Shown: in pieces, positions 31,674 to 47,509 of the stretch
How the letters are laid out: each line of letters begins with the position of its first letter
How positions within the stretch are numbered: the stretch's first letter is position 1
NCBI GenBank assembly: GCA_050291935.1
Contig: JBNKKR010000004.1
Span: forward strand, 3,206 to 67,205
Origin: Desulfocapsaceae bacterium
GTDB taxonomy: Bacteria > Desulfobacterota > Desulfobulbia > Desulfobulbales > Desulfocapsaceae
Length of the DNA stretch: 64,000 bases
Direction of reading: 5' to 3'
Made by a program: the position numbers and the translations under genes
Notes under the pieces: model-generated
Database searches by the model: none
What the model was told of the DNA's origin: nothing
The model's input: only the letters and a program-made list of their open reading frames with translations

Positions 31674-32840
31674 ATGGAAACTTTAGTGCGATATTTTCGG
31701 GAGCCAAAACAGAGTTTTTTTCTTTTTGGTCCCAGAGGTACCGGGAAATCGACCTGGCTAAAGCAGCACTACTCAAATGCTGTCCTGATTGATCTCTTAG
31801 CGCCAGAGGCTTTCCGGGCTTACTCTGCAAAACCGGAACGATTGCGTGAAATCGCTAAAGCGGCTGAAGGGAAGATAATAATTATTGATGAAGTTCAAAA
31901 GGTTCCTGAACTTCTGGATGTTGTCCATGAGCTTATTGAAAGTGAGGGGAAATTCCAGTTTATCTTGTCCGGCTCCAGTGCTCGTAAACTCAAAAGGACG
32001 GGTGTTGATCTATTGGCGGGCCGTGCCGTTGTGAAATCAATGCATCCATTTTTGGCCGCCGAATTGGATGATGCTTTCAGTCTTGAACAAAGTTTGCAAA
32101 CAGGTTTAGTTCCATTGGTGATAAACTCCCCTGATCCCGAGGAAACCCTTGCTTCCTATATTGCACTCTATTTAAGGGAAGAAGTGCAGATGGAGGGAGC
32201 GGTAAGAAACATAGGCGCATTTGGTCGGTTTCTGGAAGCGGTAAGTTTTTCACATGGCTCCACATTAAATGTTTCCGAAGTTGCAAGGGAGTGCCAGGTA
32301 AAACGCAAAACGGTGGATAATTACCTTGCTGTACTTGATGATCTTCTTCTTTCATTCCAGGTGCCGGTTTTTTCACGGCGCGCTAAGCGGCACCTGATTT
32401 CCCACCCCAAATTTTATTATTTTGATAGTGGAGTGTTTCGCTCTTTACGTCCCGCAGGTCCTCTGGACAGTCCTCAGGAGATTGATGGCGGTGCTCTTGA
32501 GGGGCTCGTTGCCCAGCATTTTAGAGCCTGGATCGCATATGGCAACAAGGATTGTATCCTCTATTATTGGCGGACAAAGGCTGGGGTCGAGGTTGATTTT
32601 GTCCTTTATGGAAAAGAGACTTTTTGGGCAGTCGAAGTCAAGAATACAGCAAGAGTTCACAAGAAAATGGTAAGAGGGCTAATTGCCTTTAAAGAGGATT
32701 ATCCAGAAGCACAAACGGTGTTGTTGTATCGTGGTAATGAGCATCTTGTTCTTGGTGGCGTGTTGTGTGTGCCTTGTGAATGTTTTCTTCAAGGCTTGGT
32801 TCCTGGTAAACCGATAGTCGCCGGGAAGTTTAGCCCTTAA
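31674..32840 (+). CDS. AAA ATPase with C-terminal DUF4143 (PD-(D/E)xK-like) domain, paralog 2
   Basis: Walker A GPRGTGKST, Walker B IIIDEVQ, C-terminal GVEVDFVLYG...WAVEVKNT. Strong AAGGAGG Shine-Dalgarno upstream. Confidence 0.8.
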   Translation: METLVRYFREPKQSFFLFGPRGTGKSTWLKQHYSNAVLIDLLAPEAFRAYSAKPERLREIAKAAEGKIIIIDEVQKVPELLDVVHELIESEGKFQFILSGSSARKLKRTGVDLLAGRAVVKSMHPFLAAELDDAFSLEQSLQTGLVPLVINSPDPEETLASYIALYLREEVQMEGAVRNIGAFGRFLEAVSFSHGSTLNVSEVARECQVKRKTVDNYLAVLDDLLLSFQVPVFSRRAKRHLISHPKFYYFDSGVFRSLRPAGPLDSPQEIDGGALEGLVAQHFRAWIAYGNKDCILYYWRTKAGVEVDFVLYGKETFWAVEVKNTARVHKKMVRGLIAFKEDYPEAQTVLLYRGNEHLVLGGVLCVPCECFLQGLVPGKPIVAGKFSP

Positions 32841-33124
32841 GGGTATTTTCTTGAAGTATGGAGTATATTCAGCACGGTAACAGTCTTGCTAGCTTCGTCA
32901 ATTGTGATAATAGCAATAAAAGGGAGGTGATTTATTACACATTCCCTTGTCCCCGCTACTCGTCCTTTTCTGCTTCTATTCGGAAAAATATGTAAGGATT
33001 CTGTTTCTTCTTTAATTTTTACTAACATTTTATTGGCAAACAAAATTGATACTTTATCGGCATAATATAATAGTATGTCTGTTAGATCTTGTTCTGCCAT
33101 TTGGGTCCAAATAATTTCGTACAT
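32837..33124 (-). CDS. type II toxin, RelE/ParE family
   Basis: 95 aa. MYEIIWTQMAEQDLTDILLYYADK... is typical of ParE-like toxins. Directly downstream of a Phd/YefM-type gene. Confidence 0.8.
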   Translation of the reverse strand: MYEIIWTQMAEQDLTDILLYYADKVSILFANKMLVKIKEETESLHIFPNRSRKGRVAGTRECVINHLPFIAIITIDEASKTVTVLNILHTSRKYP

Positions 33125-33127
33125 CGT

Positions 33128-33421
33128 TTATTCGTTGAGTAGTTTCGATACTCTTTTTATGACGTCATCATGTTTGGATAATGGCAAAGAAGTGTCATGC
33201 AAACTATCCAGTGATTTTTGAATCTTAGCTGTAAACCACTCATCGTATCCTTCTTCTTTTTCCAGGAACATTTCACTTATGAAAGTGTTTTTAGCATCTT
33301 CCATAGAAATCATAATACCAACAGGCCTGCTATTTTTTGTAACTATCACGGGTTCCCTTTGCATGGCATCAAGGAACGCGCCAAATCTGTTTTTTGCTTC
33401 TACTGAAGTCATTGTTTTCAT
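33128..33421 (-). CDS. type II antitoxin, Phd/YefM family
   Basis: 97 aa. TSVEAKNRFGAFLDAMQREPVIVTKNSRPVGIMISMEDA matches the Phd/YefM fold consensus. Confidence 0.8.
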   Translation of the reverse strand: MKTMTSVEAKNRFGAFLDAMQREPVIVTKNSRPVGIMISMEDAKNTFISEMFLEKEEGYDEWFTAKIQKSLDSLHDTSLPLSKHDDVIKRVSKLLNE

Positions 33422-33490
33422 TATAAGCTCCGTGTCAAAATGAAAAATTAACTATTCTAACTAAAATATCTATATTAAGCAGTATAGTTG

Positions 33491-33508
33491 TTGCTTTTGG
33501 AAAAGCAA
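33491..33508. promoter_or_regulatory. perfect palindrome upstream of the phd/parE pair (possible antitoxin operator, or hairpin after the upstream ATPase gene)
   Basis: TTGCTTTTGGAAAAGCAA, with 8-bp arms, lies 70-87 nt upstream of the antitoxin start at 33421. Confidence 0.3.
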
Positions 33509-33579
33509 ATTTTACAAACCAAAGAAATGAATTATCTGTCGCTGGAGGACAAACCGGTGAATTTCTCAGTCCTCCTCTG

Positions 33580-34842
33580 TCAGGTTTGTGTTCCACTTTT
33601 TGTCTGCCAAAGGCAGGAAATGGGAACTGCATAGAGATTGCGGCCAAATGGTACAACCGAGTCACCGTCATACAGTACTACTCCGGCTGTAAACCTTTCT
33701 TTAATGGATTCCTGGAGTTTTCGTAGCCCTTTGAAATCTTCACCGGTTACCGTTGCTGCGGCTTTCACTTCAACACCGGCCACGAGGCCTCTGGACTCCA
33801 GGACAATATCTATTTCAATTTTGTCCTTGCTGCGGAAATGACTGAAGGTTATTACATCATCGTACCAGCTTGCAAGTCTACGTAATTCTTGATAGATAAA
33901 AGTTTCCAGCAGGTGCCCGAAAAGAGCACGATCCTTCCACAGCATCTCTGCATCCAGCCCTAGTAAAGCACAGGCTAATCCGGTATCATCAAAGTGTAAT
34001 TTGGGGGTTTTGATAAGGCGTTTTAACCGGTTACTGTGCCAGGGAGGCAGCTCCTCCAGTAAGAATATCCGTGACAGCAGTGTTATATATTCACGGATAG
34101 TAGGACGGCTTATCTGGAAGGGTGCTGCAAGCTCGGTTATGTTGATCAGGCATGCCGTTTGTCCGGCAGCAAGGGTCAATAAACGCGGCAAAGTATCCAG
34201 AGCGCCGATACGTGCCAGATCTTGAATATCACGCTGAATCAACGTATCGGCATAATCCTTATACCATGTCATTTGCCGTCGTGGTGTGGCACGCGCAAGC
34301 GCTGCTGGATAACCTCCGGATGCCACTCGAACGGCGAGTTTTGCGCCCAGCCGTTTGCTCGAGTGTTCTGCCTGAAAGGAAGCGTTGAAAAGTGATGACA
34401 GGAAATTGGTATCTTCACCTGCTAGTTCTGCCTGAGATAAAGGGTGTAGCCGCAGGATTTCCATACGACCAGCCAGCGAGTCACCCAACCTGGGTACCAG
34501 CAGTACATTCGCTGAACCAGTCAAAATGAAGCGGCCAGGTTCCCGCCGCCTATCCACTTCCGCTTTTAAAGATGTGAATAACTCCGGTACCCGTTGCACT
34601 TCATCAAGGATTATCCGCTCCGGTAGATCGGCCACATATCCGACAGGATCAGCTTGAGCTGCTGCTCGCTGTACATCGTCATCAAAGGTGTAATACGTAA
34701 AATTTTCTTCTTCCCCGACCAACTGCGCCAAGGTGGTCTTCCCGCATTGTCGCGGCCCATGAATCAGTACCACAGGTGTGTCTGCCAGGGCCTCGACAAC
34801 ACGATCACGAAGATAACGAGGATATAAATTCTGGTTTGTCAT
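33580..34842 (-). CDS. AAA ATPase with C-terminal DUF4143 (PD-(D/E)xK-like) domain, paralog 3
   Basis: Walker A GPRQCGKTT, Walker B IILDEVQ, C-terminal IEIDIVLE...VAGVEVKAAAT. The ATG at 34842 (MTNQNLYPRYL) is preferred over the tracked 34863. Confidence 0.8.
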   Translation of the reverse strand: MTNQNLYPRYLRDRVVEALADTPVVLIHGPRQCGKTTLAQLVGEEENFTYYTFDDDVQRAAAQADPVGYVADLPERIILDEVQRVPELFTSLKAEVDRRREPGRFILTGSANVLLVPRLGDSLAGRMEILRLHPLSQAELAGEDTNFLSSLFNASFQAEHSSKRLGAKLAVRVASGGYPAALARATPRRQMTWYKDYADTLIQRDIQDLARIGALDTLPRLLTLAAGQTACLINITELAAPFQISRPTIREYITLLSRIFLLEELPPWHSNRLKRLIKTPKLHFDDTGLACALLGLDAEMLWKDRALFGHLLETFIYQELRRLASWYDDVITFSHFRSKDKIEIDIVLESRGLVAGVEVKAAATVTGEDFKGLRKLQESIKERFTAGVVLYDGDSVVPFGRNLYAVPISCLWQTKSGTQT

Positions 34843-34866
34843 AGCGGCTAATCGTAAAAACAAAGC

Positions 34867-34923
34867 CGACTAATTGCAAGATTTATCCCGACCAATTGAA
34901 AGTTTTTTGGCGACTAATTGAAA
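34867..34923. repeat. three 13-nt direct repeats, CGAC(T/C)AATTG(C/A)AA, at an exact 22-bp period
   Basis: Copies start at 34867 (CGACTAATTGCAA), 34889 (CGACCAATTGAAA) and 34911 (CGACTAATTGAAA). Each contains the palindromic core CAATTG. They lie 25-80 nt upstream of the paralog-3 ATPase start. Confidence 0.85.
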
Positions 34924-34938
34924 ACTTAAAGAGTGGCG

Positions 34939-34956
34939 TTCTTTAGGTTCTTTAGG
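34939..34956. repeat. tandem 9-mer TTCTTTAGG x2
   Basis: TTCTTTAGGTTCTTTAGG read directly, in the same intergenic region as the 22-bp periodic repeats. Confidence 0.8.
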
Positions 34957-35000
34957 TAGATAAATTAACAAATATTGGCTATGATATTCCTAAAAAAGGT

Positions 35001-35214
35001 ATGTTTTGCCCCAAGAAGTGCTGTTTTGACGATTGCTTTTCATATCAAGCAACTACAGCAAGAGATACAATGGACCCAAGCCGAATGAGCTGGGAAGATG
35101 GGGGCAAGCAAAAACAGATATCAGCTTATGCGCGGGGGGAATGCTCCATCAACAGATGTTTTGATCAAACTGTCTGGAGTATTTGATGTTACGCTTAATC
35201 ATCTTGCATTTTGA
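35001..35214 (+). pseudogene. frameshifted XRE-family helix-turn-helix gene remnant
   Basis: The tracked ORF ends ...KQISAYARGECSINRCF*. Shifting +1 at the G-run GCGCGGGGGGAA continues as NAPSTDVLIKLSGVFDVTLNHLAF*. Joined, this gives the typical HTH_XRE pattern ISxYERGxxxPSxDxLxKLxxxFxVxxxxL. Confidence 0.6.
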
Positions 35215-35238
35215 CCTACTTTTAGGAGTTGTAACGAC

Positions 35239-35448
35239 ATGACAAATATATTCACAGCAGTTGTTCATAAGGAAGAAAATCTCTATGTAGCCGAATGTTC
35301 TGAGGTAGGCACTGCAAGCCAGGGAGAGACTATTGAAGAAGCGGTGAGTAACCTAAAAGAAGCAACTGAACTTTACCTTGAAGAATTTCCCATCAAGCAG
35401 ACCTTTAGACCTTTTTTGACTACGTTTGAGGTCGCGGCCCATGCCTGA
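35239..35448 (+). CDS. hicB: type II antitoxin, HicB family (UPF0150 small form)
   Basis: 69 aa. FTAVVHKEENLYVAECSEVGTASQGETIEEAVSNLKEATELYLEE is the HicB/UPF0150 fold signature. Confidence 0.75.
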   Translation: MTNIFTAVVHKEENLYVAECSEVGTASQGETIEEAVSNLKEATELYLEEFPIKQTFRPFLTTFEVAAHA

Positions 35449-35500: not shown

Positions 35501-35642
35501 TTTTGTAAAAAATAATAACAATTCTTGAAATAGTTGTTTTGACTATTTACAGATCGTATAAAGTGTGATACTAGTGCAACAAATGGCGTTTGTCTTTTTG
35601 AAGACAGACGGTTTGTTAGGGCAAAATAATTGGGGTGTGAAA

Positions 35643-36365
35643 ATGAAAAAGAGATATATTTTGGCTCTCTGTTCCGCAGCGCTGTGCTTTGCGATAACAG
35701 GGATGGCACAGGCTGCTACGGTTAGTACCACTGAGATCACAGGAACAGTTGAGGAAATCGATTCTATTTCCAGCTATTCGACATCAGGTATAACCATGGC
35801 GGGAATGGAGGTAACCGTAACGTTTTCAGATTTTACGACGGAGACCATTTCCTGGGGAAGTAGTGGGTATGGTTCTGGTGCTGAGGGAACCGGCTGGTCT
35901 TTGACTATGTCTGATCCAAGTACAACCACCTATTTTGATGCATACTGGGATTTTGATGTGACTGATTCTAGTAAGTCTGTTTTGAGCATCGCTTTGGATG
36001 GTTTTGCTAATAATGTTGTTTTTGACGATGATGTTACGGGGGTAGGTAGTGTTGGTTCTGGATATGGTAATTCGCTTACGATTGATGCCTACACTGCACC
36101 TGATACTACATACGATGGATTGATCAATGTGTCGTATATTGGTGGAGTGCAAATAGCTGGACAGGCGTTGGTTGGTGATTTATATCAAAGCATGTTGATT
36201 GAATTTGCTGGAGATGCTTTCACTGCTGCTGATGAGTTTTACTTCTTGCAAGATACGGACAATATGGCAAATCCGATTCCTGAACCTGCTACGGTGCTAC
36301 TTTTGGGCCTAGGCGTTGCTGGATTGGCTGGAGGTCGTTTACGACGGAAGGGAGTGAAGAAGTAA
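35643..36365 (+). CDS. PEP-CTERM sorting-domain secreted protein
   Basis: Signal peptide MKKRYILALCSAALCFAITGMAQA. Ser/Thr/Gly/Asp-rich body. C-terminal IPEPATVLLLGLGVAGLAGGRLRRKG (PEP motif, TM, Arg-rich tail). The ATG at 35643 is preferred over the tracked start at 35565. Confidence 0.9.
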   Translation: MKKRYILALCSAALCFAITGMAQAATVSTTEITGTVEEIDSISSYSTSGITMAGMEVTVTFSDFTTETISWGSSGYGSGAEGTGWSLTMSDPSTTTYFDAYWDFDVTDSSKSVLSIALDGFANNVVFDDDVTGVGSVGSGYGNSLTIDAYTAPDTTYDGLINVSYIGGVQIAGQALVGDLYQSMLIEFAGDAFTAADEFYFLQDTDNMANPIPEPATVLLLGLGVAGLAGGRLRRKGVKK

Positions 36366-36394
36366 TTTTTTTCTCCAATAACATTGAGTGTTTG

Positions 36395-36431
36395 AAAAAG
36401 CTGATGTCCATGTTGACATCAGCTTTTTTTG
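36395..36431 (+). terminator. Rho-independent terminator after the PEP-CTERM gene
   Basis: AGCTGATGTC-CATGTT-GACATCAGCT followed by T7 and preceded by an A-run, so it could act in both directions. Confidence 0.85.
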
Positions 36432-36482: not shown

Positions 36483-37385
36483 CTATGCGCTTACAAGTAG
36501 TTCAAGGCTGCTAATAATCCTTGGTATCGCATCCGTCGTTTGCGGGCTACATATTTTATGGATTTGCACTTGCTGTAGAAGAAGGGAACAGCAATCGAGC
36601 AGCGTGGTGTATTCTTCTTTAGATAGCGCAGTATGGTATTTTGCAAAGTATTGATTGCTAAGAAGGTGAAACAATTTTTCCGATTCAGTTAGTTGCTGAA
36701 TAGTTACAGTGTTTCCTCGTTCCAAGATTACAATATTGCATAAGGGAGAGTTGTGTTGTGCTAGTTGGTTACTTTGAATGTTAACAGCATGCTTGGGAAG
36801 TATTGGAGAAATAAGAGGGAATTTCTCCAGATTTAGCCCTATGGCTCGCATGGCATCGTACCACAATTTTATTCTTGGAATACCTAATGGAATAATTGGT
36901 TTTCCCTCTGGAACGATTGAGACTGCCGTTACATCGTCAGTTAAAAATTTATGTCCTTTGGTAACTAACGCAGCGGTAATTGTAGATTTTCCAAACCCCT
37001 TGTCTCCAACAAGCATTACCCCCTTATTCATGATGGTTACAGAACTAGCGTGAAAGACACTAAACCCCATCTGTTTAAGCAAGGTAGCCATAACAATGGC
37101 ATAAAGTGGCTGTAGTATCAGGTTGGAGAACTCAACGGAAAGAGAGTGCGGTGTGATAACGATTTTGTTGGCATCCTCTATGTTATATGACGCCACCTCT
37201 GGCCAGCAAATAACAAGTCCATCGCCATTGTCTGAAACCACAACCTTTTCGTCAACGACGGGTGGAGAAGGAAAATACGCGCTTTCGGAGACTGATACCT
37301 CATACTCCCCTGAATGTGCTACATTGAATCCGGGGAGTGCTCGATATGACCGGATACCAAATCCATAAGCTTCACAAAAAAACAC
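36483..37385 (-). CDS. HPr kinase/phosphorylase-like kinase (HprK C-terminal domain family), lasso-cluster associated
   Basis: 300 aa. P-loop GVMLVGDKGFGKSTITAALVTKGHKFLTDDV resembles the HprK catalytic core. Immediately downstream of the precursor gene. GTG start without a clear Shine-Dalgarno, so the start is uncertain. Confidence 0.75.
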   Translation of the reverse strand: MFFCEAYGFGIRSYRALPGFNVAHSGEYEVSVSESAYFPSPPVVDEKVVVSDNGDGLVICWPEVASYNIEDANKIVITPHSLSVEFSNLILQPLYAIVMATLLKQMGFSVFHASSVTIMNKGVMLVGDKGFGKSTITAALVTKGHKFLTDDVTAVSIVPEGKPIIPLGIPRIKLWYDAMRAIGLNLEKFPLISPILPKHAVNIQSNQLAQHNSPLCNIVILERGNTVTIQQLTESEKLFHLLSNQYFAKYHTALSKEEYTTLLDCCSLLLQQVQIHKICSPQTTDAIPRIISSLELLVSA

Positions 37386-37414
37386 TGTGATCTGAACGAA
37401 TAAGACTCTCGCAG

Positions 37415-37450
37415 AATGCTAGACCAAAGTGCAAATGGTCAGCTAGCATT
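37415..37450 (-). promoter_or_regulatory. stem-loop 4 nt downstream of the precursor stop codon (possible attenuator or mRNA stabiliser)
   Basis: AATGCTA/TAGCATT outer stem plus GACCA/TGGTC inner stem with a small bulge. No U-tract follows on the minus-strand transcript, so it is not a classical terminator. Confidence 0.45.
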
Positions 37451-37454
37451 TTTG

Positions 37455-37640
37455 TCAACTGCAACCTATAGTACCTAAACCAGGTATCGAGCAATCACTT
37501 GGACCGCTGTTAGCTTCTCCTTTTGTTAGCTCTGATGCCTTTCCTAGCCTAGCTACTGTGGGCGCTTCATATATTGGTTTTTTTGCCATTTTTCCTGAGT
37601 TACAAGAAATTTCAGGTTTGTTTGATCGCCGATAATGCAT
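37455..37640 (-). CDS. lasso peptide precursor (A peptide)
   Basis: MHYRRSNKPEISCNSGK-MAKKPIYEAPTVARLGKASELTK|GEANSGPSDCSIPGLGTIGCS. The leader fits YxxPx(L/V)x3Gx5Tx-G exactly (Y-17, P-14, V-12, T-2). The core starts with Gly1 and has Asp9 as the only acidic residue at positions 7-9. Two possible starts exist: ATG 37640 (GGGGG 5 nt upstream, 2 nt after the cyclase stop) or ATG 37589 (AGGA 3 nt upstream). Confidence 0.85.
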   Translation of the reverse strand: MHYRRSNKPEISCNSGKMAKKPIYEAPTVARLGKASELTKGEANSGPSDCSIPGLGTIGCS

Positions 37641-37642
37641 AA

Positions 37643-39535
37643 TTACCCCCTTACTTTTCTATTCCAAACATCCAAAGATACAATTTTTAACAGAATTCTA
37701 ATGTCAACGAAGCTGAAGCGAGTAGATTCCCGAAAAAATGAGTCGCATGCTTGCTGGGAAAATTTCCTATTTACATAATCATACGTTTCCTTGGATATGT
37801 TGTCAATGCTAAACTGTAACCATTCCTTTGCGGCTGTTGAAAATACGTGATTTATATTAGCATCGAAATACGTTTTTGATTTTCGCTTAGAGATTTTTTC
37901 AGGAAAGATTGACCGTAAAGCATTCCGTAGAATATTTCTATTGTAACCCTTATGCCTCTTATGCTGAGTCGGTAGGGCTAAGCAAAATTCTATGAGTCGT
38001 TTATCGAAGAAGGGATATCTGCCTATTAAATTCTGCCTTTTATTTTGTCGTTCAAATAATTCAAGATGAAGAGGGCGTAATGGTTGCTTGACTAAAAGGT
38101 GATGATGAATTTTTTCTGTTTGAGCAGGGTGATAGCGAGTATGAAAGAAAGAAAGTAATCGTTCCCGCATATCACTATTCTGTAAAAATGAGGGATTTAG
38201 TATATCCGTCATTTTTTGAATATCTTTTTTATGATAAAAAGAAGGAAATAATTGGCCATAGTCATAGCTTATCCGTTGCCGAGCAATATATGCAAATAAT
38301 TTCAACGCCTTTTTTAGGCTTTGTGTATTACCAGTGGCGTAGCATTCTTGTAACAGGCGTAGCCATCTGCCACGAATAAATAAATCATTATACAAACCTT
38401 CACCATGGGAAACTGCAGAATCCCCATCATGTCCATCCAGAATAACACGGATACCTTTTTTTTCTGCAATTCCCATAAGATTCCATACCATAAAGAAATG
38501 AGGTGCAAAGAATGGCTCGTCTTCTGTGTTGGCGACTTGTTCAAAAGCTTTACCCGGGTGAATTGTATCCGCTTCGATAAAGTTTGGCGAAATGTTATAT
38601 CTTGCAAGTGTGCTGTTAAAAAAATGACGCTCATCGCATTCTGTTACTGTATTAAAAATTCCAGAGAAGGAATGCAATGTCCCGGGATAGCAGTTTTGCA
38701 AAGGACCTGCTGCCATACAGACAATGGAAGACGAGTCAAGACCGCCACTAAGGTAGGAGCCTATTGGAAAGGCTGTGCGCAACCTGCAGCGGACGGATTC
38801 TTTAAAAATGGAGTAAAAAGCTTCTCTATATTCACTATCTTTTTTACAGAAGAGTGTCGTTGCATGGGGCTCCCAGAATTTTTCGATAAGGCTATTGTCT
38901 CTGGTAATTTTGAAATAATGGCCCGGAGGAAGACGAAATAGAGTCGTATAAAAGGTGCTTTCTTCATCAGTAACTTCACATGTAAGAAACTCGGCTATCC
39001 TGGTGGTATTGATTATGGAGGTGTCTTTAAGGGGAAGACAACGAATCCCTTTTATCTCAGAAGCAAAAACAAAAATATCATCGGAAAGATAATAGTAGAA
39101 GGGCATAACGCCCATATGATCCCTCGCACAAAAGAGAGATTGGGCAGCAGCATCCCAAATAACAAAGGCAAAATCACCTAGAAGATGATATACGCAATCA
39201 TGGCCCCATTTTTCGTAAGCCGCAAGGATAAGTTCGCTATCCGTTGTTTGGGAAAGGGGTTTTGACCATCCAACTGAATCTCGTAATTCTTCCCGGTTAT
39301 CTATTCGCCCCTGCCAGGTAATGGTTCGCCTGGATCTCTGATTTTGGGCAGGGAGTTTTTCAAAAAGAGATTCCGGGGTGTCATGAAGAGCACAATGCAA
39401 TAGGCCGATATTGGAATCAGAAAAATAATTGATACCGTCCGGCCCCCGATGGGCCAAGGCTGTCCCCATTGCTTGTAACTGAGTTGGTTCAACAGGTGCG
39501 CCGTTGCGATGGAAGATTCCGCCTATTCCACTCAT
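37643..39535 (-). CDS. lasso peptide isopeptide bond-forming cyclase (asparagine synthetase B homolog)
   Basis: 630 aa. The N-terminus MSGIGGIF lacks the Cys2 glutaminase nucleophile of true AsnB. PP-loop SYLSGGLDSSSIV is retained. Flanked by a PqqD-like gene and the precursor. Confidence 0.85.
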   Translation of the reverse strand: MSGIGGIFHRNGAPVEPTQLQAMGTALAHRGPDGINYFSDSNIGLLHCALHDTPESLFEKLPAQNQRSRRTITWQGRIDNREELRDSVGWSKPLSQTTDSELILAAYEKWGHDCVYHLLGDFAFVIWDAAAQSLFCARDHMGVMPFYYYLSDDIFVFASEIKGIRCLPLKDTSIINTTRIAEFLTCEVTDEESTFYTTLFRLPPGHYFKITRDNSLIEKFWEPHATTLFCKKDSEYREAFYSIFKESVRCRLRTAFPIGSYLSGGLDSSSIVCMAAGPLQNCYPGTLHSFSGIFNTVTECDERHFFNSTLARYNISPNFIEADTIHPGKAFEQVANTEDEPFFAPHFFMVWNLMGIAEKKGIRVILDGHDGDSAVSHGEGLYNDLFIRGRWLRLLQECYATGNTQSLKKALKLFAYIARQRISYDYGQLFPSFYHKKDIQKMTDILNPSFLQNSDMRERLLSFFHTRYHPAQTEKIHHHLLVKQPLRPLHLELFERQNKRQNLIGRYPFFDKRLIEFCLALPTQHKRHKGYNRNILRNALRSIFPEKISKRKSKTYFDANINHVFSTAAKEWLQFSIDNISKETYDYVNRKFSQQACDSFFRESTRFSFVDIRILLKIVSLDVWNRKVRG

Positions 39536-39846
39536 TGTGCTTGAATAGTAATAAATTCTTTATCCGCAAGTTGTTGTAAAAAGCTAAGGATATCCGGAGT
39601 ACATTCTTCATCTGTTGTATCAAATCTATCAGTTACCTTTGTGATAAGTTGAGCTAATGTAACGTCCTCTTGCAAAAGTTCCCAAATAAGTGAAGCAACT
39701 GGGTTCAATTGACTGTATACTCCGTCAACCATATCAAGAATGATGGTTTCCATATCAATCTGCGTGGACAATTTGTCGTCTTTCCTGCAGAAGGTGGCTT
39801 GGGAGAGTTTGGCATTTTTGGGGGAAAAGAACGTTGCGTAATCCAT
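39532..39846 (-). CDS. PqqD-family RiPP recognition element protein (lasso B1)
   Basis: 104 aa. ...ILDMVDGVYSQLNPVASLIWELLQEDVTLAQLITKVTDRFDTTDEECTPDILSFLQQLADKEFI matches PqqD-like winged-helix proteins. 4-nt overlap with the cyclase gene. Confidence 0.8.
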   Translation of the reverse strand: MDYATFFSPKNAKLSQATFCRKDDKLSTQIDMETIILDMVDGVYSQLNPVASLIWELLQEDVTLAQLITKVTDRFDTTDEECTPDILSFLQQLADKEFITIQAQ

Positions 39847-39882
39847 AACGTTTTTGCTCGTTTTTTTTGTATTTTTGTAGTG

Positions 39883-40713
39883 CTAAAAGTGAAGAAGAGA
39901 CCCTTCTCGTTTTGCAATTCGTATCCCTTGGTATATTGATACTATACCAATACCTAGTGATATTATCGAGAGAATTAAAAGGATAGATAACTGTATGCGT
40001 ACCCCCATAAGATCCGAACCATTGAGGAGAATTTGCCGGAGCGCTTCCAGTCCGTGGGTTATGGGAAAGAAAACAGAAAAAGGTTTGATCCATTGGGGTA
40101 GAACGCTTACCGGATACATAACGCCGCCCAACAGTCCTGATATTGTGGTCATCAGGATTCCTATTGGATTTCCCTGCTTAAAGACAATAATAAAAGATGC
40201 CGAGAGCAGGCCAAGGCCAAAAAAAGGCAAAAGAGTAAGGGTGAAAGCAACCAGGAGTGCTCCAATATTTACAGGATGGATCTGCATATCAAAGAGAAAA
40301 ATACCCACTACAAAATAGCTAATGGTTCTAAAACTGGTTGAAAAGAGTTTGTACACATAGGAAGAAAGCAAAATCGTAATGATAGAAGTGGGAGTGACTA
40401 GCAGTGATTCCAGGGTGCCGAGGACTTGTGAAGACCTGATCTCATTGGCAAAGGTGTTGGTGGAAATGGTGAAATAATCCGCCAGTGCGATACCTATTAA
40501 TACAAAGGAAAAGTAATCTCCGCCGTAAGGCTCAAGCTGCGCTATTTCGTTGCCAGCAAAGAGTTTTGCAAGAAGGAAAAAGGAAAACGTAGTGAGAATA
40601 ATACCAAATCCTTGGGTGACATAGTGCAGGCGATAGCTTGTCGCAGTTTTAAAATCACGAATGAAAAAGGCCGCGGGTTTTGCCACTATTTGCTGCACTT
40701 TTATACTGTTCAT
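39883..40713 (-). CDS. ABC-2 type transporter permease
   Basis: 276 aa with six predicted TM segments. 4-nt overlap with the upstream ABC ATPase gene. Confidence 0.8.
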   Translation of the reverse strand: MNSIKVQQIVAKPAAFFIRDFKTATSYRLHYVTQGFGIILTTFSFFLLAKLFAGNEIAQLEPYGGDYFSFVLIGIALADYFTISTNTFANEIRSSQVLGTLESLLVTPTSIITILLSSYVYKLFSTSFRTISYFVVGIFLFDMQIHPVNIGALLVAFTLTLLPFFGLGLLSASFIIVFKQGNPIGILMTTISGLLGGVMYPVSVLPQWIKPFSVFFPITHGLEALRQILLNGSDLMGVRIQLSILLILSIISLGIGIVSIYQGIRIAKREGSLLHF

Positions 40714-41504
40714 TGTGGGGATAGGGAGGAAGATGGATGTGGTGCAGTGATGAGGTCTATAAAACTTTGCTCAATGGAGCTGCAGTCGGCAATACCTTGA
40801 AAGGTGCCATTATACAAAAGATTTCCTCCATTGAGGATGGTTACAGAATCACATATTTCTTCCGCTTCATGTAAGTTATGGGTGCACCAAATAACAGTTC
40901 TCTGCTTCTTTTTTACCAGAGTTTCCTTTGTGAACTTGAGCAGTTTTTTACAGGCGATAGGGTCAAGGCTGGTAGTTGCCTCATCCATAAGTAAAATTTC
41001 AGGATTTGCCAGTAATGCCCTTGCAATGGCTAAGCGTTGCTTTTGACCTGCGGAATAGGACATAAATTTAAACTCTGCTTTTTCCTCCATATCGGTGAGT
41101 TGTAGTACATCATGAATGCGTTCTTTTTGTAACTTACCGGAAATATTATAAAGGGTTGCAAAAAAAGAGAGATTCTCTCGTCCACTAAGACGCCAATAGA
41201 ATGTCCGATCGTTGGTGTTGACCATGCCTATTTTTGATTTTATGGCCATTGCTTGTGAGTGAAGACAGAGTCCGGCAATGCTCCCTGTTCCCTCATCTGG
41301 GGTGACTAATGTGGAGAGAATTTTTATCAAGGTTGTTTTGCCAGCACCATTGGGCCCCAGTAAACCCATTATCTCCCCTTGATGGACAGTGAGTGAAACA
41401 TGGCTGAGGGCAATTGTTTTTCTGGGGGGGCGAAAGAAGAAGGTTTTCCAATTTCGTTCGGTAAAGCTTTTGGAAATATTGTTTAGGGTTATGATTGGAA
41501 CCAT
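40710..41504 (-). CDS. ABC transporter ATP-binding protein
   Basis: Walker A GPNGAGKTT, signature YSAGQKQRL, Walker B ILLMDEATTSLD. Confidence 0.9.
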   Translation of the reverse strand: MVPIITLNNISKSFTERNWKTFFFRPPRKTIALSHVSLTVHQGEIMGLLGPNGAGKTTLIKILSTLVTPDEGTGSIAGLCLHSQAMAIKSKIGMVNTNDRTFYWRLSGRENLSFFATLYNISGKLQKERIHDVLQLTDMEEKAEFKFMSYSAGQKQRLAIARALLANPEILLMDEATTSLDPIACKKLLKFTKETLVKKKQRTVIWCTHNLHEAEEICDSVTILNGGNLLYNGTFQGIADCSSIEQSFIDLITAPHPSSSLSPQ

Positions 41505-41552: not shown

Positions 41553-42158
41553 TTACTTGAAAATGATGCCACGCTCTCGAAGCTCATATATGATATCATT
41601 TACACAGTCTCGTAAAAGACGACTCCCGGTGTCCAGCTCAATATCAGGATTTTCAGGTGCTTCATAGGGGGAAGATATTCCGGTATAATTTTTTATTTTT
41701 CCCTCTCTTGCCTTTTTGTACAATCCTTTCACATCGCGTTGTTCGCAAATTTCTAAAGGGCAATTGCAGTACACTTCAAGTATATTTTCCGGGCCTATAA
41801 TGTTCTTAACCCTTTCCCGGTCAACTTTCAGCGGAGAAATAAAAGCGGTGAGAGAAATAACACCACAATCAAGGAATAAGCCAACCATCTCTGCTATTCT
41901 TCTCATATTTTCGCTACGGTCTTCCATGGAAAAGCCAAGATCACCGCAAAGGCCGTGGCGCACATTATCCCCGTCAAATACATAGGTTCGGCATCCCATC
42001 AAGTGCAGACGTTGTTCAACGGCATGGGCAAGGGTTGATTTTCCTGATCCTGAAAGGCCGGTGAACCAGAGATTAATACTCAGATGTCCATTTTGGGTTT
42101 CACGTCTTGGCCTGGTGACAGCCGCTTGCTGTCTGATAACATTGGGTGATGTAGCCAT
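41553..42158 (-). CDS. cysC: adenylyl-sulfate (APS) kinase
   Basis: 201 aa. WFTGLSGSGKSTLA P-loop, FDGDNVRHGL, and ISPLKVDRE motifs. Confidence 0.9.
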   Translation of the reverse strand: MATSPNVIRQQAAVTRPRRETQNGHLSINLWFTGLSGSGKSTLAHAVEQRLHLMGCRTYVFDGDNVRHGLCGDLGFSMEDRSENMRRIAEMVGLFLDCGVISLTAFISPLKVDRERVKNIIGPENILEVYCNCPLEICEQRDVKGLYKKAREGKIKNYTGISSPYEAPENPDIELDTGSRLLRDCVNDIIYELRERGIIFK

Positions 42159-42159
42159 G

Positions 42160-43026
42160 TTAACAGAGAAGCTCTTTAAGGTAGGGAAGCAGGGTATCTT
42201 TTATCTCTGGATGCTCTAAAGCGAAAGCAAGGTTAGCCATTTGAAATCCTGCCTTATCGCCACAGTCAAATCGGGTTCCTGAAAAACGATAGCCGAAAAT
42301 CGGTTGTTCTGTGAGCAGTTGGGACATTGCATCGGTGAGTTGTATCTCCCCACCTGCTCCGGTTGCTTGTCCTCCCAGTATTTCAAAAATACGTGGAGTA
42401 AGAATATAACGACCAATGACCGCCAAGTTTGATGGCGCCTTATCGGAAGGTGGCTTTTCAATCATACCACGAATGCGGAACGTTTCATCACATGGAGTAT
42501 CCGCATCAAGAATGCCATATCGTGAAGTTTCTTCCTGAGGTACCTCAATTGCAGCAACGGTTGAAGCTCGAATTCTATCGAATTCCTGTATCATCTGATA
42601 AAGAACCGGAATATCACTTTTTATCAGATCATCAGCAAGGAGTACGGCAAAAGGTTCGTCACCAACGATATCTCTTGCGCACCAGATTGCATGGCCTAAT
42701 CCAAGGGGTTCACTTTGTCTTGTGTATATTATTGTCCCTGATTTGGGGACCAATGATTCAATCTCTTTAAGGAGTTCAAATTTTTCGCGTTGTCTGAGAG
42801 TTTCTTCTAATTGGAAAGACCTGTCAAAGTGGTTTTCCAAGGCACTTTTTCCTCCTCCAGTAACAAAAATAAGGTGCTCTATTCCAGATGCAAGTGCTTC
42901 TTCAACGGCATATTGAATAAGTGGCTTGTCCACCACTGGTAACATCTCTTTGGGCATGGCTTTGGTGGCTGGAAGAAATCTCGTTCCAAGCCCTGCCACA
43001 GGAAAAATCGCTTTTTTAATTTTCAT
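42160..43026 (-). CDS. galU: UTP--glucose-1-phosphate uridylyltransferase
   Basis: KKAIFPVAGLGTRFLPATKAMPKEMLPVVDKPLIQY is the canonical GalU N-terminus. Confidence 0.95.
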   Translation of the reverse strand: MKIKKAIFPVAGLGTRFLPATKAMPKEMLPVVDKPLIQYAVEEALASGIEHLIFVTGGGKSALENHFDRSFQLEETLRQREKFELLKEIESLVPKSGTIIYTRQSEPLGLGHAIWCARDIVGDEPFAVLLADDLIKSDIPVLYQMIQEFDRIRASTVAAIEVPQEETSRYGILDADTPCDETFRIRGMIEKPPSDKAPSNLAVIGRYILTPRIFEILGGQATGAGGEIQLTDAMSQLLTEQPIFGYRFSGTRFDCGDKAGFQMANLAFALEHPEIKDTLLPYLKELLC

Positions 43027-43247
43027 GGGAACTCTTTGGTTGATGAATCACGTTTTGAAGACGTTTCAGGTTGTTTCAAAAAGCATTACAGCTCCATGAT
43101 AGTGAAAATTGGATAAACAATCCACCATAAAATATTTTGAATGCTAAAGGGAGCGATCAAAAAAATACCTTGCACCTTTTTGGCAACTTACGGTTTAATT
43201 ACGTGAGACCGTATACTCTTTTTCTCCTTTTTTCAGGAAAGCAAACT

Positions 43248-43922
43248 ATGAAATATATGTTTACCATTTTTGGTCTTGTTCTTATGACCAGTCTCTTGAC
43301 CTTGTATTACTTGTGGCCTGATAGTGGTGGTGCAAGTAAACCGAGCACTGAGCAAAATGGACAGGAATCGCCTGCAAGTTACCATCTTATTGGCCAGAAA
43401 GCTCGGGAGGCAGCGAGCTTGAACAGACAAATTCTTGTTCAAGAGGCACAACGGATTGGAATTGATAAAGAAGAGAGTTTTAGAAAATCATTGAAGGAAT
43501 ATTATGAACAATCGTTGGTGAGAGTGTTGATGGATAGAAAGCTTGCTGAGACTAGTGTTACTGTAAGCGAAGAAGATATTGACAGCTATCTTGGGAAGTT
43601 TGGTTCTATTTTTACCTTTACCCGTTTTCCAGTGATAAACGGAAAAATTCAGCAGGAGAGTGGAAATCAAAGCACTGTTCTTTTTGATGAGCTTTCTTCC
43701 ACATTACAACTTTTATTGGCCGGACTTGAACTGGGGGAAAGTGCAAGTCAATACGAGACAGGGACTGAAATCAGTGTAATTCGTTTAGATGCAGTTCGTC
43801 CATCTTCGGTGGTTGTGGCTACTGATCTTGATAGAAATCAAATACGTGAGCAGCTTGCAAATTACAAAAGGAGTCAACAGATCGATCTTTGGATTCATAT
43901 GTTGCGAGAAAGCAGTCATTAA
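43248..43922 (+). CDS. SurA N-terminal-domain-like chaperone protein (no rotamase domain), membrane-anchored
   Basis: Start MKYMFTIFGLVLMTSLLTLYYLW (signal/anchor) with AGGA upstream. ...NRQILVQEAQRIGIDKEESFRKSLKEYYEQSLVRVLMDRKL... resembles the SurA_N/EpsD-like N-domain. Weak call. Confidence 0.45.
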   Translation: MKYMFTIFGLVLMTSLLTLYYLWPDSGGASKPSTEQNGQESPASYHLIGQKAREAASLNRQILVQEAQRIGIDKEESFRKSLKEYYEQSLVRVLMDRKLAETSVTVSEEDIDSYLGKFGSIFTFTRFPVINGKIQQESGNQSTVLFDELSSTLQLLLAGLELGESASQYETGTEISVIRLDAVRPSSVVVATDLDRNQIREQLANYKRSQQIDLWIHMLRESSH

Positions 43923-43999
43923 TATGTTTGGTGGTTGTGGCCGTGGAGTGAAAGTGTAATACGGTAAAGAGGAATCAGTAGAGGACGGGAAAAAGAGAA

Positions 44000-44605
44000 A
44001 TGGCAGAGAAAGGGTATAAACGTAAAAACTATTTTATCAAAAAGAATTTTCAAGGAAAATTAATCCTTGGCTATTTTCTGTTTTTGGTTGTTGGTTGCCT
44101 GCTCTTTATTCTGGCACTGTCATTTTTGGCAGCAGATAGTATGACGGTGACCTATAGCAATAACAATTTGCAAATTGGCCAGACCCCTTTGATGTTGTTT
44201 AAGGAGTTAGTTACAGCAAATTGGATTGTTATAGTTGTTGGTGCGGCTTTGGTCGTTGCCATTGCCACACGAATAACCCATCGTATGGCAGGGCCCATGT
44301 TTAATCTGGAGCGCTCACTTGATGCTATGATTGATGGCAAACTCAACAAGACAATCTATTTACGAAAAAAAGATGAAGGAAAGGAATTGGCCGCAAAAAT
44401 CAATCAATTTAATGCGGAACTAAGCACTGATATAAAAAGTATAAAGAAACGTTCAAAAAATATTGAGGAGTTATTGTCAAGCTGGGCTGTTCAAGATCCA
44501 ACAAAGAGAAGGCAGGACGACCTGGACTCGATTCATGCATCAATTGCAAAACAGAATGGTATTATTGGTGAAATAGTTAGCAGGTACAAGTTGCTAGATG
44601 ATTAA
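44000..44605 (+). CDS. two-TM membrane protein with a HAMP-like linker and coiled-coil tail (function unknown)
   Basis: 201 aa. KRKNYFIKKNFQGK, then TM1, a short loop and TM2, then RITHRMAGPMFNLERSLDAMIDGKL (HAMP-like). 8-nt overlap with the next gene. Confidence 0.5.
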   Translation: MAEKGYKRKNYFIKKNFQGKLILGYFLFLVVGCLLFILALSFLAADSMTVTYSNNNLQIGQTPLMLFKELVTANWIVIVVGAALVVAIATRITHRMAGPMFNLERSLDAMIDGKLNKTIYLRKKDEGKELAAKINQFNAELSTDIKSIKKRSKNIEELLSSWAVQDPTKRRQDDLDSIHASIAKQNGIIGEIVSRYKLLDD

Positions 44606-45137
44606 ATATTTGTTGACAGTGTTCTTCTTGTTGCTCTCATGCGTTTTGTTCGGCGTTACGGAAACTGCCCAGGCACAGGAGCAAAAGAGCAAATATGTAA
44701 CGCTGTGGTATTCAAATAGGGAGGTGTTACAGGAGTTTAATGATAATTTGCAACTTAATCGAAAGCTACATTATGCCATGCGTAAAAATGTGGTTACGGT
44801 GGCAGATGAGGTGTTGGCAAAACTTGATATTATCGTAGAAAAAGTCCAAATTGTCCTTGATATGTTTCCTGAATATTATCATGTTCGGGTGGCAGTTCTA
44901 CCAGATAACGACGATGTGGCACGAATCTATAAAAAGCGATATGGAAAACGGGTAAATCATATCGCCTACTATTCCCTTTCTGAAAAAACCATTTATATTT
45001 CAGCAGATGATACAAGACTTCGGGTTGTGGCCCATGAAGTTGGGCACTCCGTGGTCGATCACTATTTTAAAGTGCGTCCGCCTTATAACATTCACGAGTT
45101 GATGGCCCAGTTCGCCGAAAAGCATGTAACGGATTAG
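44598..45137 (+). CDS. secreted small protein with an HExxH zinc-metallopeptidase motif (function unknown)
   Basis: Signal peptide MIKYLLTVFFLLLSCVLFGVTETAQA. VAHEVGHSVVDHYFKVRPPYNIHELMAQFAE gives HExxH plus a downstream Glu (gluzincin-like arrangement). Confidence 0.5.
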   Translation: MIKYLLTVFFLLLSCVLFGVTETAQAQEQKSKYVTLWYSNREVLQEFNDNLQLNRKLHYAMRKNVVTVADEVLAKLDIIVEKVQIVLDMFPEYYHVRVAVLPDNDDVARIYKKRYGKRVNHIAYYSLSEKTIYISADDTRLRVVAHEVGHSVVDHYFKVRPPYNIHELMAQFAEKHVTD

Positions 45138-45161: not shown

Positions 45162-47504
45162 TTATATGGGGTTCTGTTTTTCTATCTTATTGATCCGTTG
45201 CTGTATCCTTATGTTTCTGGGGTCCAGGAAAAGTGCCTGCTTATACTCTTCCAATGCGCGATAATTGATTCCTTGTTTGCGGTAGTAGTCCCCCAAAGAG
45301 ATATGAAAGGAAGGATAGTCGGGTGATGCTTCTATTCCGCGTCTAAGAATCTCAATGGCTTCCTCTTCTTTTTTGTGTCTTTTATAGAATGAATAGATTT
45401 GATTAAAAAAATGTGGTTTGACAGTTTCTTCCTGATCCAAAAAGTCCAAGGCGTGGAGTCTGAAAAATTCTGCATCTTCAAGTTTTCCCATTTTCTCCAA
45501 AAAATGACCGGTTTGAATCCAGGGTGAGGCTTTACGTGGGAGTAATGAAGCTATTGATTCTTTCGTATAATCGCTACTTAAAAGAAAAAGAGGAAGGGCC
45601 TTCGCCAGGTTAGGATAAAGTTTTATCCCTTGTTGCAGCGCCTTTGCGGCCTGTTTTGGTTTACGCTGTTGGAGAAGCCATTCGATCCAGGAGAAAATGA
45701 GCTCTTCTTTGTTTTGGCTACGAAGATATCCCTCTTCCATAAGAGTATTTGCAAGACGAATCTTTTGTGGCGGAAGTGAAAGGGCAAGCCGTTGTAAGTA
45801 TGCACCTTCGTTAGGGTTTTTCATTGATGCTTTACTGTATGCTCTTAGTGCATCATCACCTTGTTTCCTCGCTGAAAAAAGGCCTCCTTTATAGAAATAA
45901 TAGTAACCTTCCAAAGGATCATATTCTATTGCCTGGTCAATGGTTTTATGGAGCCTGGTAAACAGCGCAGTGGAAAGTTTAGGGGAAACATAGACTTGTT
46001 CTGCCTGGTGTTGTAGCTTTTTGGCCTTAATAACGCCGTTTTGAACAAAAAAAGTGAGAAAAAAGAGTGGGAGAGTGAGAAAACAGATAGTGCGTAGTGT
46101 TGCTGAACCTGTTCGTAACAGTGTTGGGCGTGATCTGAAATGAAGGCGGGTATTGCCTGCGGAAACAAGCAGACCGCAGAGGAAGAAAAAATAGAGGCCA
46201 TTGGCGCCATTATGCATATTAAAGTCGGTAATACTGTGCAAAAGTATCGAGAAGAGGGCTGTTATCCCGGCGATTGAGAGTAAAATCGAATAGGTGTCTC
46301 GCCTCTTTTGCAACATATTGATACCGTTTCGGAAAATTGCTAATACAAACCATGCTGCAAGACTAAAACCAATTAACCCACCGTCGGTGAGTAGTTCTAT
46401 ATAATCGTTGTGGGCATGATCAAACAGTGCACTTGAGGGAATAGTTGAGTAGCGGGGAAATGCATGGGTGAAGGTTGCAAAACCGGATCCGGTAAAGAAA
46501 TAATCATGGATCATGGGTGCACAATCCTGCCAAATAAAAAGTCTTCCATTTTGAATTTCGCCTGTTGCAGAGACCACACTATTAAAGCGGCTTAAAATGG
46601 GGTCCCATCCCATCCATCCTACAGCTAAAAAAACAATGGCCATGGCCAGGAAGAAAACACCTCCTTTGGATTTGCTGCTTTTTTGTCTCAGCAGCAGAAA
46701 AAAGAGGAGTAAACCAAGGTTGATGGCGATGGTACCACCGCGAGAGAGGGTGACAAATACGGAACAAAGAATAAGGATTGCACCAAAGCCAAGTAAAAAA
46801 TAAAAATTAGACCCTGAGGTTGACAAAAAAGCGGCCATGCGTGCACGAAAGGCAAGTTTTTTGTCAACTTTGGGTCGATGGTAAAAAAAGAGGGCAAGTA
46901 CCAGCGGAAAGACAAGTTCCATAAAACCGGCATAATGGTTTCGATAGACCCACGGCCCGCCAGGGCTTGCATCTTGGGGAGCAGGTCTTAGCCAGTAGAT
47001 GATAGTATCGGAAGTAAATTTTTGCAAAATTGCCAAAAAGGCGATACCAATAGCCAGATACACAACAACATGCACTGTTTTGAGAAGTCTGTCCTTTTTG
47101 CTCAACAGTTGGACGGTAAGGATATAGAAACTTGTGTAACAGCTAATACGAATAAACTCAAGGAGTGTTGCTTTCTGGTTTACAGTGAGAGGGATCCAGC
47201 TCTTTGTTTCTTGAAGATCAAGAATAGGGGCGTACGTCTTATATATCTGTGGGGCTATAAAATTAACAAAATTTGCAGGAAGAGGGATAAGCTGCAGGAA
47301 AATAAAACAAACGAGTAAGAGAAGGGGGACTATACCAGGAGTTGCGAAGAACGCACCTGAACGCTTTTTAGGGAAGACCAAGAAAAATAAACTGCTGAAA
47401 ACAAGTAGCTCAACAATCGCAATTGACCACGTTTCCACACTGCCAAATGCCAAAGGAGCAAAAATCAGGCAAATTACAAAGAGTGGAAAAGAAAGTTTTC
47501 GCAT
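45162..47504 (-). CDS. O-antigen ligase/polymerase family (Wzy_C) membrane protein fused to a C-terminal TPR domain
   Basis: 780 aa and multi-TM, with HAHNDYIELLTDGGLIGF (Wzy_C motif). The last ~280 aa are soluble TPR-like repeats (...ALRAYSKASMKNPNEGAY..., ...ALEEYKQALFLDPRN...). Confidence 0.75.
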   Translation of the reverse strand: MRKLSFPLFVICLIFAPLAFGSVETWSIAIVELLVFSSLFFLVFPKKRSGAFFATPGIVPLLLLVCFIFLQLIPLPANFVNFIAPQIYKTYAPILDLQETKSWIPLTVNQKATLLEFIRISCYTSFYILTVQLLSKKDRLLKTVHVVVYLAIGIAFLAILQKFTSDTIIYWLRPAPQDASPGGPWVYRNHYAGFMELVFPLVLALFFYHRPKVDKKLAFRARMAAFLSTSGSNFYFLLGFGAILILCSVFVTLSRGGTIAINLGLLLFFLLLRQKSSKSKGGVFFLAMAIVFLAVGWMGWDPILSRFNSVVSATGEIQNGRLFIWQDCAPMIHDYFFTGSGFATFTHAFPRYSTIPSSALFDHAHNDYIELLTDGGLIGFSLAAWFVLAIFRNGINMLQKRRDTYSILLSIAGITALFSILLHSITDFNMHNGANGLYFFFLCGLLVSAGNTRLHFRSRPTLLRTGSATLRTICFLTLPLFFLTFFVQNGVIKAKKLQHQAEQVYVSPKLSTALFTRLHKTIDQAIEYDPLEGYYYFYKGGLFSARKQGDDALRAYSKASMKNPNEGAYLQRLALSLPPQKIRLANTLMEEGYLRSQNKEELIFSWIEWLLQQRKPKQAAKALQQGIKLYPNLAKALPLFLLSSDYTKESIASLLPRKASPWIQTGHFLEKMGKLEDAEFFRLHALDFLDQEETVKPHFFNQIYSFYKRHKKEEEAIEILRRGIEASPDYPSFHISLGDYYRKQGINYRALEEYKQALFLDPRNIRIQQRINKIEKQNPI

Positions 47505-47509
47505 AAAGT

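Follow-up and report, generated by a model that had tools for sequence, protein, structure and literature searches.

The lasso genes and the missing leader peptidase

The 64-kb window analysed here (the whole stretch of 64,000 nt from a Desulfocapsaceae bacterium) carries a lasso peptide operon of the kinase-tailored kind from which the gene for the leader peptidase B2 is missing. An open reading frame (ORF) check recovered six co-oriented minus-strand ORFs, and Pfam and NCBIfam profiles agree with the labels that an earlier note, made from the letters alone, had given to these tightly packed genes. They encode a DrrA-like ATP-binding cassette (ABC) ATPase (40710-41504; PF00005, 107 bits; TIGR01188 drrA, 208 bits, below its cutoff), a DrrB-like ABC-2 permease that is the probable exporter subunit (39883-40713; PF01061, 50.6 bits), a PqqD-family protein B1 of 104 aa (39532-39846), a cyclase C of 630 aa with an Asn-synthetase fold (37643-39535), a precursor A of 61 aa (37455-37640), and an HprK-like lasso-tailoring kinase K of 300 aa (36483-37385; PF07475, 37 bits). 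Three 4-nt overlaps had been described in the same note; those between the ATPase and permease genes and between the PqqD and cyclase genes were found, but the permease and PqqD genes lie 36 nt apart.

The cyclase scored 614 bits against NF033535, the model of lasso peptide isopeptide bond-forming cyclases (cutoff 525), compared with 204.5 bits against TIGR03108, the XrtA/PEP-CTERM exopolysaccharide (EPS) amidotransferase model (cutoff 816.9), and 152 bits against the AsnB model PRK09431 (cutoff 499). Its N-terminus reads MSGIGG, so residue 2 is a Ser and there is no Cys2 nucleophile. This catalytic Cys2 is replaced by Ser or Gly in 18 of 18 aligned relatives, and the PP-loop SGGLDS is invariant among the aligned cyclases. 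Because the lasso model was passed, both competing models were failed by a wide margin, and Cys2 is absent, the protein does not group with glutamine-hydrolysing AsnB or EPS amidotransferases, and its earlier labelling as a lasso cyclase is supported.

B1 reached 60.8 bits against PF05402 (cutoff 23.4), which places it among the RiPP recognition elements (RREs), and 55 bits against NF033536 lasso_PqqD_Bac, below the cutoff of 80; the family-invariant residues Y44, I54, W55, and L90 are kept. The kinase shows full-length homology to kinases that adjoin lasso cyclases in 36 loci (for example E 2e-24 to that of Sphingobium, L023), and such kinase-bearing lasso loci come from cyanobacteria, Mesorhizobium, sphingomonads, Acidobacteriota, and Desulfobulbales. 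Its residues H112, K133, D150, and D151 are conserved at 97-100% in 37 sequences. Mutagenesis has shown this His-Lys-Asp-Asp motif to be essential in the lasso-tailoring kinases PadeK and ThcoK (PMC9266682). According to reviews, the residue that PadeK, ThcoK, and SyanK phosphorylate is the Ser at the C-terminus of the linear precursor, and the PF14907-type enzyme PsmN adds a hexose to that phosphate (PMC8498205, PMC9266682). With the motif intact and full-length homologues next to lasso cyclases, the earlier proposal of an HprK-like tailoring kinase, and with it of a possible +80 Da, is supported.

The precursor ATG at 37640 is preceded by the ribosome-binding site AAGGGGG. A leader of ~40 aa ending in ...YEAPTVARLGKASELTK is followed by a predicted core of 21 residues, GEANSGPSDCSIPGLGTIGCS (37458-37520), and the cleavage region reads ...ELTK/GEANSGPSD... 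(cleavage at the slash), with Thr at position -2, Gly1, and Asp9. The core ends in ...GCS and thus has the C-terminal Ser of kinase-tailored lasso peptides. The ORF passes the leader model NF033521 lasso_leader_L3 (21.4 bits, cutoff 19), and in all seven closest loci (L001-L004 and L087-L089) the cyclase and kinase genes flank an ORF of 60-65 aa, so that both the small ORF and the 21-residue core put forward in the earlier note are supported by profiles and by conservation. Predicted cores of the relatives include GNGSPRQCDAHGLGHGEDPCSP (L001), SETPAEGCDASFGGPPGTGSGPCPS (L002), GTEGGSNVDCNGYGHAIDPCSA (L004), ATEEGANCDGVLFGDQPCVS (L087), and GNETEPNCDASQPGRGVDPCSP (L089).

The window and its close relatives keep the leader motif Y/C-x-x-P-x-(L/V/I)-x-x-(L/H)-G-x-A-x-x-L-T-x. 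Conserved across the seven related loci are Thr at -2, a Gly, Ser, or Ala at +1, Asp9, and two Cys, one of which adjoins Asp9 while the other lies near the C-terminus; Ser is last or second-to-last, and the cores of close relatives end in CS, CPS, CVS, CSP, or CSA. Outside these processing determinants, core residues vary almost everywhere between the window and the seven loci. Conservation of Thr at -2, of a small residue at +1, and of Asp9 against an otherwise variable sequence is what a lasso precursor with a ring from Gly1 to Asp9 should show. A regular expression built on the leader picked out comparable precursors, most of them ending in Ser, in 34 of the 36 loci with a kinase gene that were sampled first. 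The computed product masses are 1902.81 Da for the cyclised 21-mer, 1982.78 Da for its phosphorylated form, and 2144.83 Da with phosphate and hexose.

Genes for B2, a transglutaminase-like Cys protease (PF13471), were searched for across the 64-kb window. The best tblastn match had an E value of 1, and a hidden Markov model (HMM) of 34 B2 sequences, run with --max and hence with filters off on six-frame fragments, scored 4 bits at best; nor was there in the window a B2 domain fused to a PF14907 protein, as reported for some Firmicutes. Two B2 proteins considered for the genome of the window, P0290 and P0355, were rejected as belonging to other assemblies. At the B1/C junction (39532-39535, minus strand), where relatives have a B2 gene of ~450 nt, the window has none, its PqqD stop codon running into the start codon of the cyclase gene. 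A PF13471 gene of 148-150 aa sits between the PqqD and cyclase genes in L087, L088, and L089, and B2 occupies the same place in L002 and L003, which have a different genomic context, so that five of the seven closest loci carry it. The PqqD/cyclase junction is 100% identical in three other assemblies (L090-L092; GCA_050291085.1 and two Logan run assemblies), and since these are independent, the B2-less junction is not an assembly artefact.

B2 is also lacking in L001, whose flanking synteny resembles that of the window, and in the distant loci L011 (Desulfocapsa) and L039 (Acidobacteriota), which together with the window makes 4 of ~39 kinase-type loci sampled. The lasso cluster composition asserted in the earlier note therefore holds for cyclase, RRE, precursor, and kinase, all supported by curated profiles, but not for B2, and the cluster as encoded in the window is incomplete. 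B2 is regarded as essential in canonical lasso systems (PMC8498205). Pseudomycoidin, however, was made in Escherichia coli and Bacillus subtilis without B1 and B2, and a cluster of cyclase, precursor, and kinase without B genes was found in silico in Stanieria PCC 7437 (PMC6993621).

Cluster extent and neighbouring genes

The nearest named relatives of the locus are metagenome-assembled genomes (MAGs) of Desulfobulbaceae and Desulfocapsa. In L087-L089 the gene order is three small divergent genes, galU-cysC-ABC-ABC2-PqqD-B2-cyclase-precursor-kinase, a convergent PEP-CTERM gene, and glnA-glnD-PII-amt. All seven closest loci place the precursor gene between cyclase and kinase, and this is frequent in the kinase-type family at large, so the earlier remark that this order is unusual does not hold. 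The kinase, too, is normal for the subfamily, and the ABC-2 exporter, galU-cysC, and the PEP-CTERM neighbour are features common to all close relatives.

In the window, cysC (adenosine 5'-phosphosulfate kinase; 41553-42158, minus strand; NF003013, 279 bits) and galU (UDP-glucose pyrophosphorylase; 42160-43026, minus strand; TIGR01099, 364 bits) lie upstream of the six genes in the same orientation, with a gap of 1 nt between galU and cysC and of 48 nt between cysC and the ABC ATPase gene. The operon ends after the kinase gene, where the gap to the convergent PEP-CTERM gene holds a hairpin terminator (36394-36428; dG -21.6 kcal/mol, followed by a T-run) that none of 200 shuffled sequences matched in stability (z -5.9). 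A terminator scan found no such site between the upstream genes, the permease/B1 gap included. An attenuator hairpin in the precursor/kinase intergenic region was neither significant (z -0.12) nor conserved, and Rfam and tRNA scans of the window returned no matches.

Conservation differs along the locus: galU and cysC are 85-91% identical to those of the relatives, the ABC-2 pair 63-76%, and B1, C, K, and the PEP-CTERM protein 35-54%. Orthologues of the ABC-2 permease hold the same place in L001 and L087-L089, the pair is the neighbour of B1 throughout the five loci of this sub-clade, and a permease homologue of 46% identity lies between two cyclases in L005. Given this adjacency and the homologue in L005, the ABC-2 pair is the likeliest exporter of the peptide, while galU and cysC, from the identities and the trees below, look more like conserved neighbours than like proven genes of the pathway. 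Neither galU and cysC nor the ABC-2 pair accompany the lasso genes in L002, which carries instead a PCMT-type methyltransferase gene and one for a VTT-domain protein. The former is protein isoaspartate O-methyltransferase-like and the latter encodes a membrane protein; both were seen in a non-EPS context in L002 (7961-9224) and L003 (2362-3625); PCMT homologues install aspartimides in some lasso peptides. L005 itself (4740-12098, a Desulfobulbaceae MAG) has two divergent cyclases (28% mutually identical), two precursor candidates, one kinase, one B2, two PqqD-family ORFs of which one is possibly a fragment, and a permease split into three ORFs, maybe by frameshifts or MAG errors.

The trees built for these genes are small neighbour-joining trees and are to be read with caution. 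A concatenated tree of the flanks paired the window with L001 at 100% bootstrap, whereas the kinase and PEP-CTERM trees, which agree with each other and disagree with the flanks, paired L001 with L089 (88% and 99%) and placed the window elsewhere; B1 and C trees gave no resolution. As L089 bears B2, the flank tree and the kinase and PEP-CTERM trees differ on the history of B2, which may have been lost once or twice. Read together with the identities above, the trees hint at a kinase/PEP-CTERM end that evolves faster and has possibly been exchanged as a cassette.

The PEP-CTERM gene (35565-36365, plus strand, likely start 35643) encodes a sorted protein with a PF07589 tail whose structural model is all-beta (predicted local distance difference test 91.7); a fold search of this model against the PDB gave no match. 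A member of this family of ~240 aa faces the kinase gene convergently in each of the seven close loci, in two wider contexts that include the non-EPS context of L002. This adjacency and the congruence with the kinase tree are suggestive of linkage, within one clade. An exhaustive search found 446 representatives of the family at E<=1e-10 (a word-indexed search gave 5 matches), and a family this large is not, overall, specific to lasso loci. A PEP-CTERM protein beside the divergent lasso cluster L027 was rejected as a homologue since it matched only in the sorting tail, and no paper linking lasso peptides with PEP-CTERM proteins turned up in the literature library that was searched. P0133, a PEP-CTERM relative of 33% identity, has purH and an IS1595-type transposase as its neighbours where contigs end, and is uninformative. 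Six metagenome contigs with a PEP-CTERM homologue of 33% identity next to purH (L093-L098) all end a few hundred bases past the PEP-CTERM gene, and the two longest have a partial co-directional ORF after it that, in L093 (6527-6667), resembles the N-terminus of an IS1595-type transposase. These contig ends suggest a repeat-induced assembly break.

A PF14907 nucleotidyltransferase gene of the PsmN-like family (55728-56909, minus strand; PF14907, 193 bits) is found ~14.8 kb from the ABC ATPase gene, between genes for a UDP-N-acetylglucosamine 2-epimerase and a WecG-type glycosyltransferase in a run of WecB/WecG-type EPS genes. Its product is 29% identical over 382 aa (E 3e-52) to the kinase-adjacent copy in Desulfocapsa L011. 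The family flanks lasso genes in 24 other loci and adjoins the lasso kinase in many distant ones, and L087 and L088 have a member immediately past the three small genes, ~2 kb from galU. The protein may possibly be a second tailoring enzyme for the peptide.

In its wider setting, the locus has PEP-CTERM-type EPS genes on one side and glnA-glnD-PII-amt on the other. Upstream of galU, three small divergent genes (43137-45137, plus strand) are 43-78% identical to those in L001 and L087-L089 and match no Pfam or NCBIfam family; that at 44000-44605 encodes a transmembrane segment and shows weak HAMP-like similarity, and that at 44598-45137 a signal peptide and an HEVGH zinc-protease-like motif. Because they also occur in B2-bearing loci, they are not a substitute for B2. 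A PEP-CTERM/exosortase-style EPS set follows (45162-54322, minus strand), with a Wzy_C/O-antigen-ligase-like protein with TPR repeats, an EpsE-like exporter, an EpsL-like outer-membrane protein, a fused EpsF/EpsG-like chain-length determinant/tyrosine kinase, and a WecA-like glycosyl-phosphate transferase with a C-terminal PilZ domain. Of the window ORFs scanned, none could be identified as an exosortase gene.

Between glnA and the PEP-CTERM gene lie three AAA_14/DUF4143 ATPase genes (30383-31543, 31674-32840, and 33580-34863), a toxin-antitoxin-like pair (32837-33421), and a HicB-like ORF (35239-35448). This gene set (30383-35448) looks like an insertion of ~6 kb, given that glnA lies within ~0.5 kb of the PEP-CTERM gene in the relatives. 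yidC and mnmE are found near the window start (3232-7259, plus strand) and dnaA near the lasso locus in L002, so that these loci may lie close to a replication origin. Over most of the window the cumulative GC skew climbs, and it levels off after ~50 kb.

Maturation and rival readings

The reading to which I lean, with a confidence only somewhat better than even, is that of a kinase-tailored lasso operon which has lost its own B2 and is probably in use with leader removal supplied from outside. From the observed gene identities, the precursor features, the absence of B2 from the window, and its presence at the relatives' junction, I infer the following chemical steps. The 61-aa precursor would be made first, and the kinase, by homology and motif conservation, would phosphorylate Ser21 of the linear precursor. 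The PqqD-type B1 would then bind the leader motif YxxPxVxxLG, and the leader would be cut after Thr(-2)-Lys(-1) by a protease encoded outside the operon, the candidates being a housekeeping protease and a B2 encoded at another genomic site. The cyclase would adenylate Asp9 and join it to the amine of Gly1, giving a nine-residue ring and a 12-residue tail with Cys10 and Cys20, and the DrrAB-like ABC-2 pair would export the product.

Two alternatives concern what the locus encodes. It seems highly improbable that the 630-aa protein works as a true asparagine synthetase dependent on glutamine, or as an XrtA/PEP-CTERM amidotransferase, and that the small ORF is spurious: the general asn_synth_AEB model is just passed (270.9 bits against 267.1) and the gene does sit within a PEP-CTERM-type EPS region, but TIGR03108 is missed by far (204 against 817) where the lasso cyclase model is cleared (614 against 525), the catalytic Cys2 is a Ser, an RRE, a kinase, and a conserved precursor adjoin, and L002 has the same genes outside an EPS context. 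It is a more serious, if still doubtful, proposal that the lasso unit comprises only B1, C, A, and K (36483-39846), with the ABC-2 pair, cysC, and galU forming a separate housekeeping or EPS unit upstream. The steep fall in identity from galU and cysC over the ABC genes to B1, C, and K, the disagreement of flank trees with the kinase and PEP-CTERM trees, the lasso genes of L002 that do without ABC-2 pair, cysC, and galU, and the use of a fused McjD-like ABC protein in distant kinase-type loci all favour such a division. It sits less well with a permease/B1 gap of just 36 nt that holds no terminator-like site, with the pair being beside B1 in all five sub-clade loci and the permease homologue between the two cyclases of L005, and with the DrrAB type, which is better suited to small-molecule or peptide than to polysaccharide export.

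Whether the pathway works is a separate question, on which several observations weigh against the operon being in use. B2 is absent from the 64-kb window, and among the best 120 B2 homologues that a profile search drew from 5.8 billion proteins, none sits on a contig of the length of the window's own (130,745 bp). B1 of the window is the most divergent of its clade (40-47% identity, compared with 54-59% among the others), and its long branch could mean relaxed constraint; the case for a pathway in use is, moreover, argued from the genes. Deletion of B2 may have left a relic that makes no lasso peptide, its remaining genes not yet decayed or yielding only a phosphorylated linear peptide. I consider this unlikely, although the essential role of B2 in canonical systems (PMC8498205), its presence in five of the seven closest loci, and the B1 branch speak for it. 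B1, C, A, and K are intact ORFs without frameshift or stop in both B2-less loci, the window and L001, and as the catalytic and recognition residues are present, including Thr at -2 besides Gly1 and Asp9, the pathway is probably still in use. Retention of B1 fits a B2 supplied in trans, since B1 presents the leader for cleavage, and sharing of components is plausible because one B1/B2 set accompanies two cyclases in L005. An operon in use with external leader removal is further supported by the repeated occurrence of B2-less kinase-type loci in distant lineages and by the published B1/B2-independent maturation of pseudomycoidin, which is of the same subfamily (PMC6993621). A joint proposal, which I hold to be more doubtful still than a relic, is that B2-independent leader removal with B1 kept is recurrent and selected, and that the Desulfobulbales lasso/PEP-CTERM genes are a fast-evolving cassette; if true, this cassette would point to a cell-surface or biofilm-linked role of the peptide rather than to a simple antibiotic.

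Relation to known lasso peptide systems

The earlier note could not say whether this cluster family had been described. Kinase-tailored lasso peptides are in fact already published, namely paeninodin, SyanA, and pseudomycoidin (PMC8498205, PMC9266682, PMC6993621), and the locus belongs to this known kind (paeninodin, ThcoA, SyanA, pseudomycoidin) as a variant that has lost B2 from a once complete cluster; the missing cluster-encoded B2 is why it is filed as a variant rather than as a full member. Its cyclase and leader would be nameable by NCBI's own models. With the clusters of paeninodin (PadeK), ThcoK, and SyanK (Sphingobium yanoikuyae) it shares the split B1, the cyclase, the His-Lys-Asp-Asp kinase, and a precursor ending in Ser, and full-length homologues of the window genes are found in the Sphingobium-type loci L023 and L033. 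It differs from these clusters in having no B2, a two-component ABC-2 exporter in place of the fused McjD-like ABC protein, a two-Cys core with a predicted nine-residue ring, a leader of ~40 aa, and a Desulfobulbales-like anaerobe as host. Pseudomycoidin (psmA, C, B1, B2, K, N; Bacillus pseudomycoides) has a tailoring kinase and, putatively, tailoring by a PF14907-type nucleotidyltransferase in common with the window, but in contrast to pseudomycoidin made without B1 and B2 and to the Stanieria cluster, the window has lost only B2 and kept B1, and its PF14907 gene is ~14.8 kb off, among EPS genes.

BI-32169 (class III) and LP2006 (class IV) are disulfide-bearing lasso peptides with a Gly1-Asp9 nine-residue ring. 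The window peptide presumably shares this ring and perhaps a single disulfide made with the Cys close to its C-terminus, a bond that is putative in an anaerobe. Its Cys10 and Cys20 both lie in the tail, whereas relatives have Cys8 in the ring.

Orthologous loci are L087-L089, from uncharacterised metagenome-assembled genomes of Desulfobulbales, which have the same gene order and cyclases 51-54% identical to that of the window (the range of local alignments across the close relatives), but with B2 between B1 and C and a small helix-hairpin-helix (ComEA-like) gene between cysC and the ABC gene. Most of the features flagged as unusual are normal for the subfamily, and the interesting point is the loss of B2 with the rest kept. 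B2 is treated as a universal lasso requirement and used as a genome-mining criterion, and clusters without it are easily missed or dismissed by tools that require it. Should a B2 elsewhere in the genome complement the cluster, the locus would merely be one more member of a known family. The PEP-CTERM neighbour and the EPS setting offer a lead on the role of lasso peptides in anaerobic sediment bacteria, and intact B1, C, A, and K genes without B2, set beside complete orthologues, provide a natural test of outsourced leader removal.

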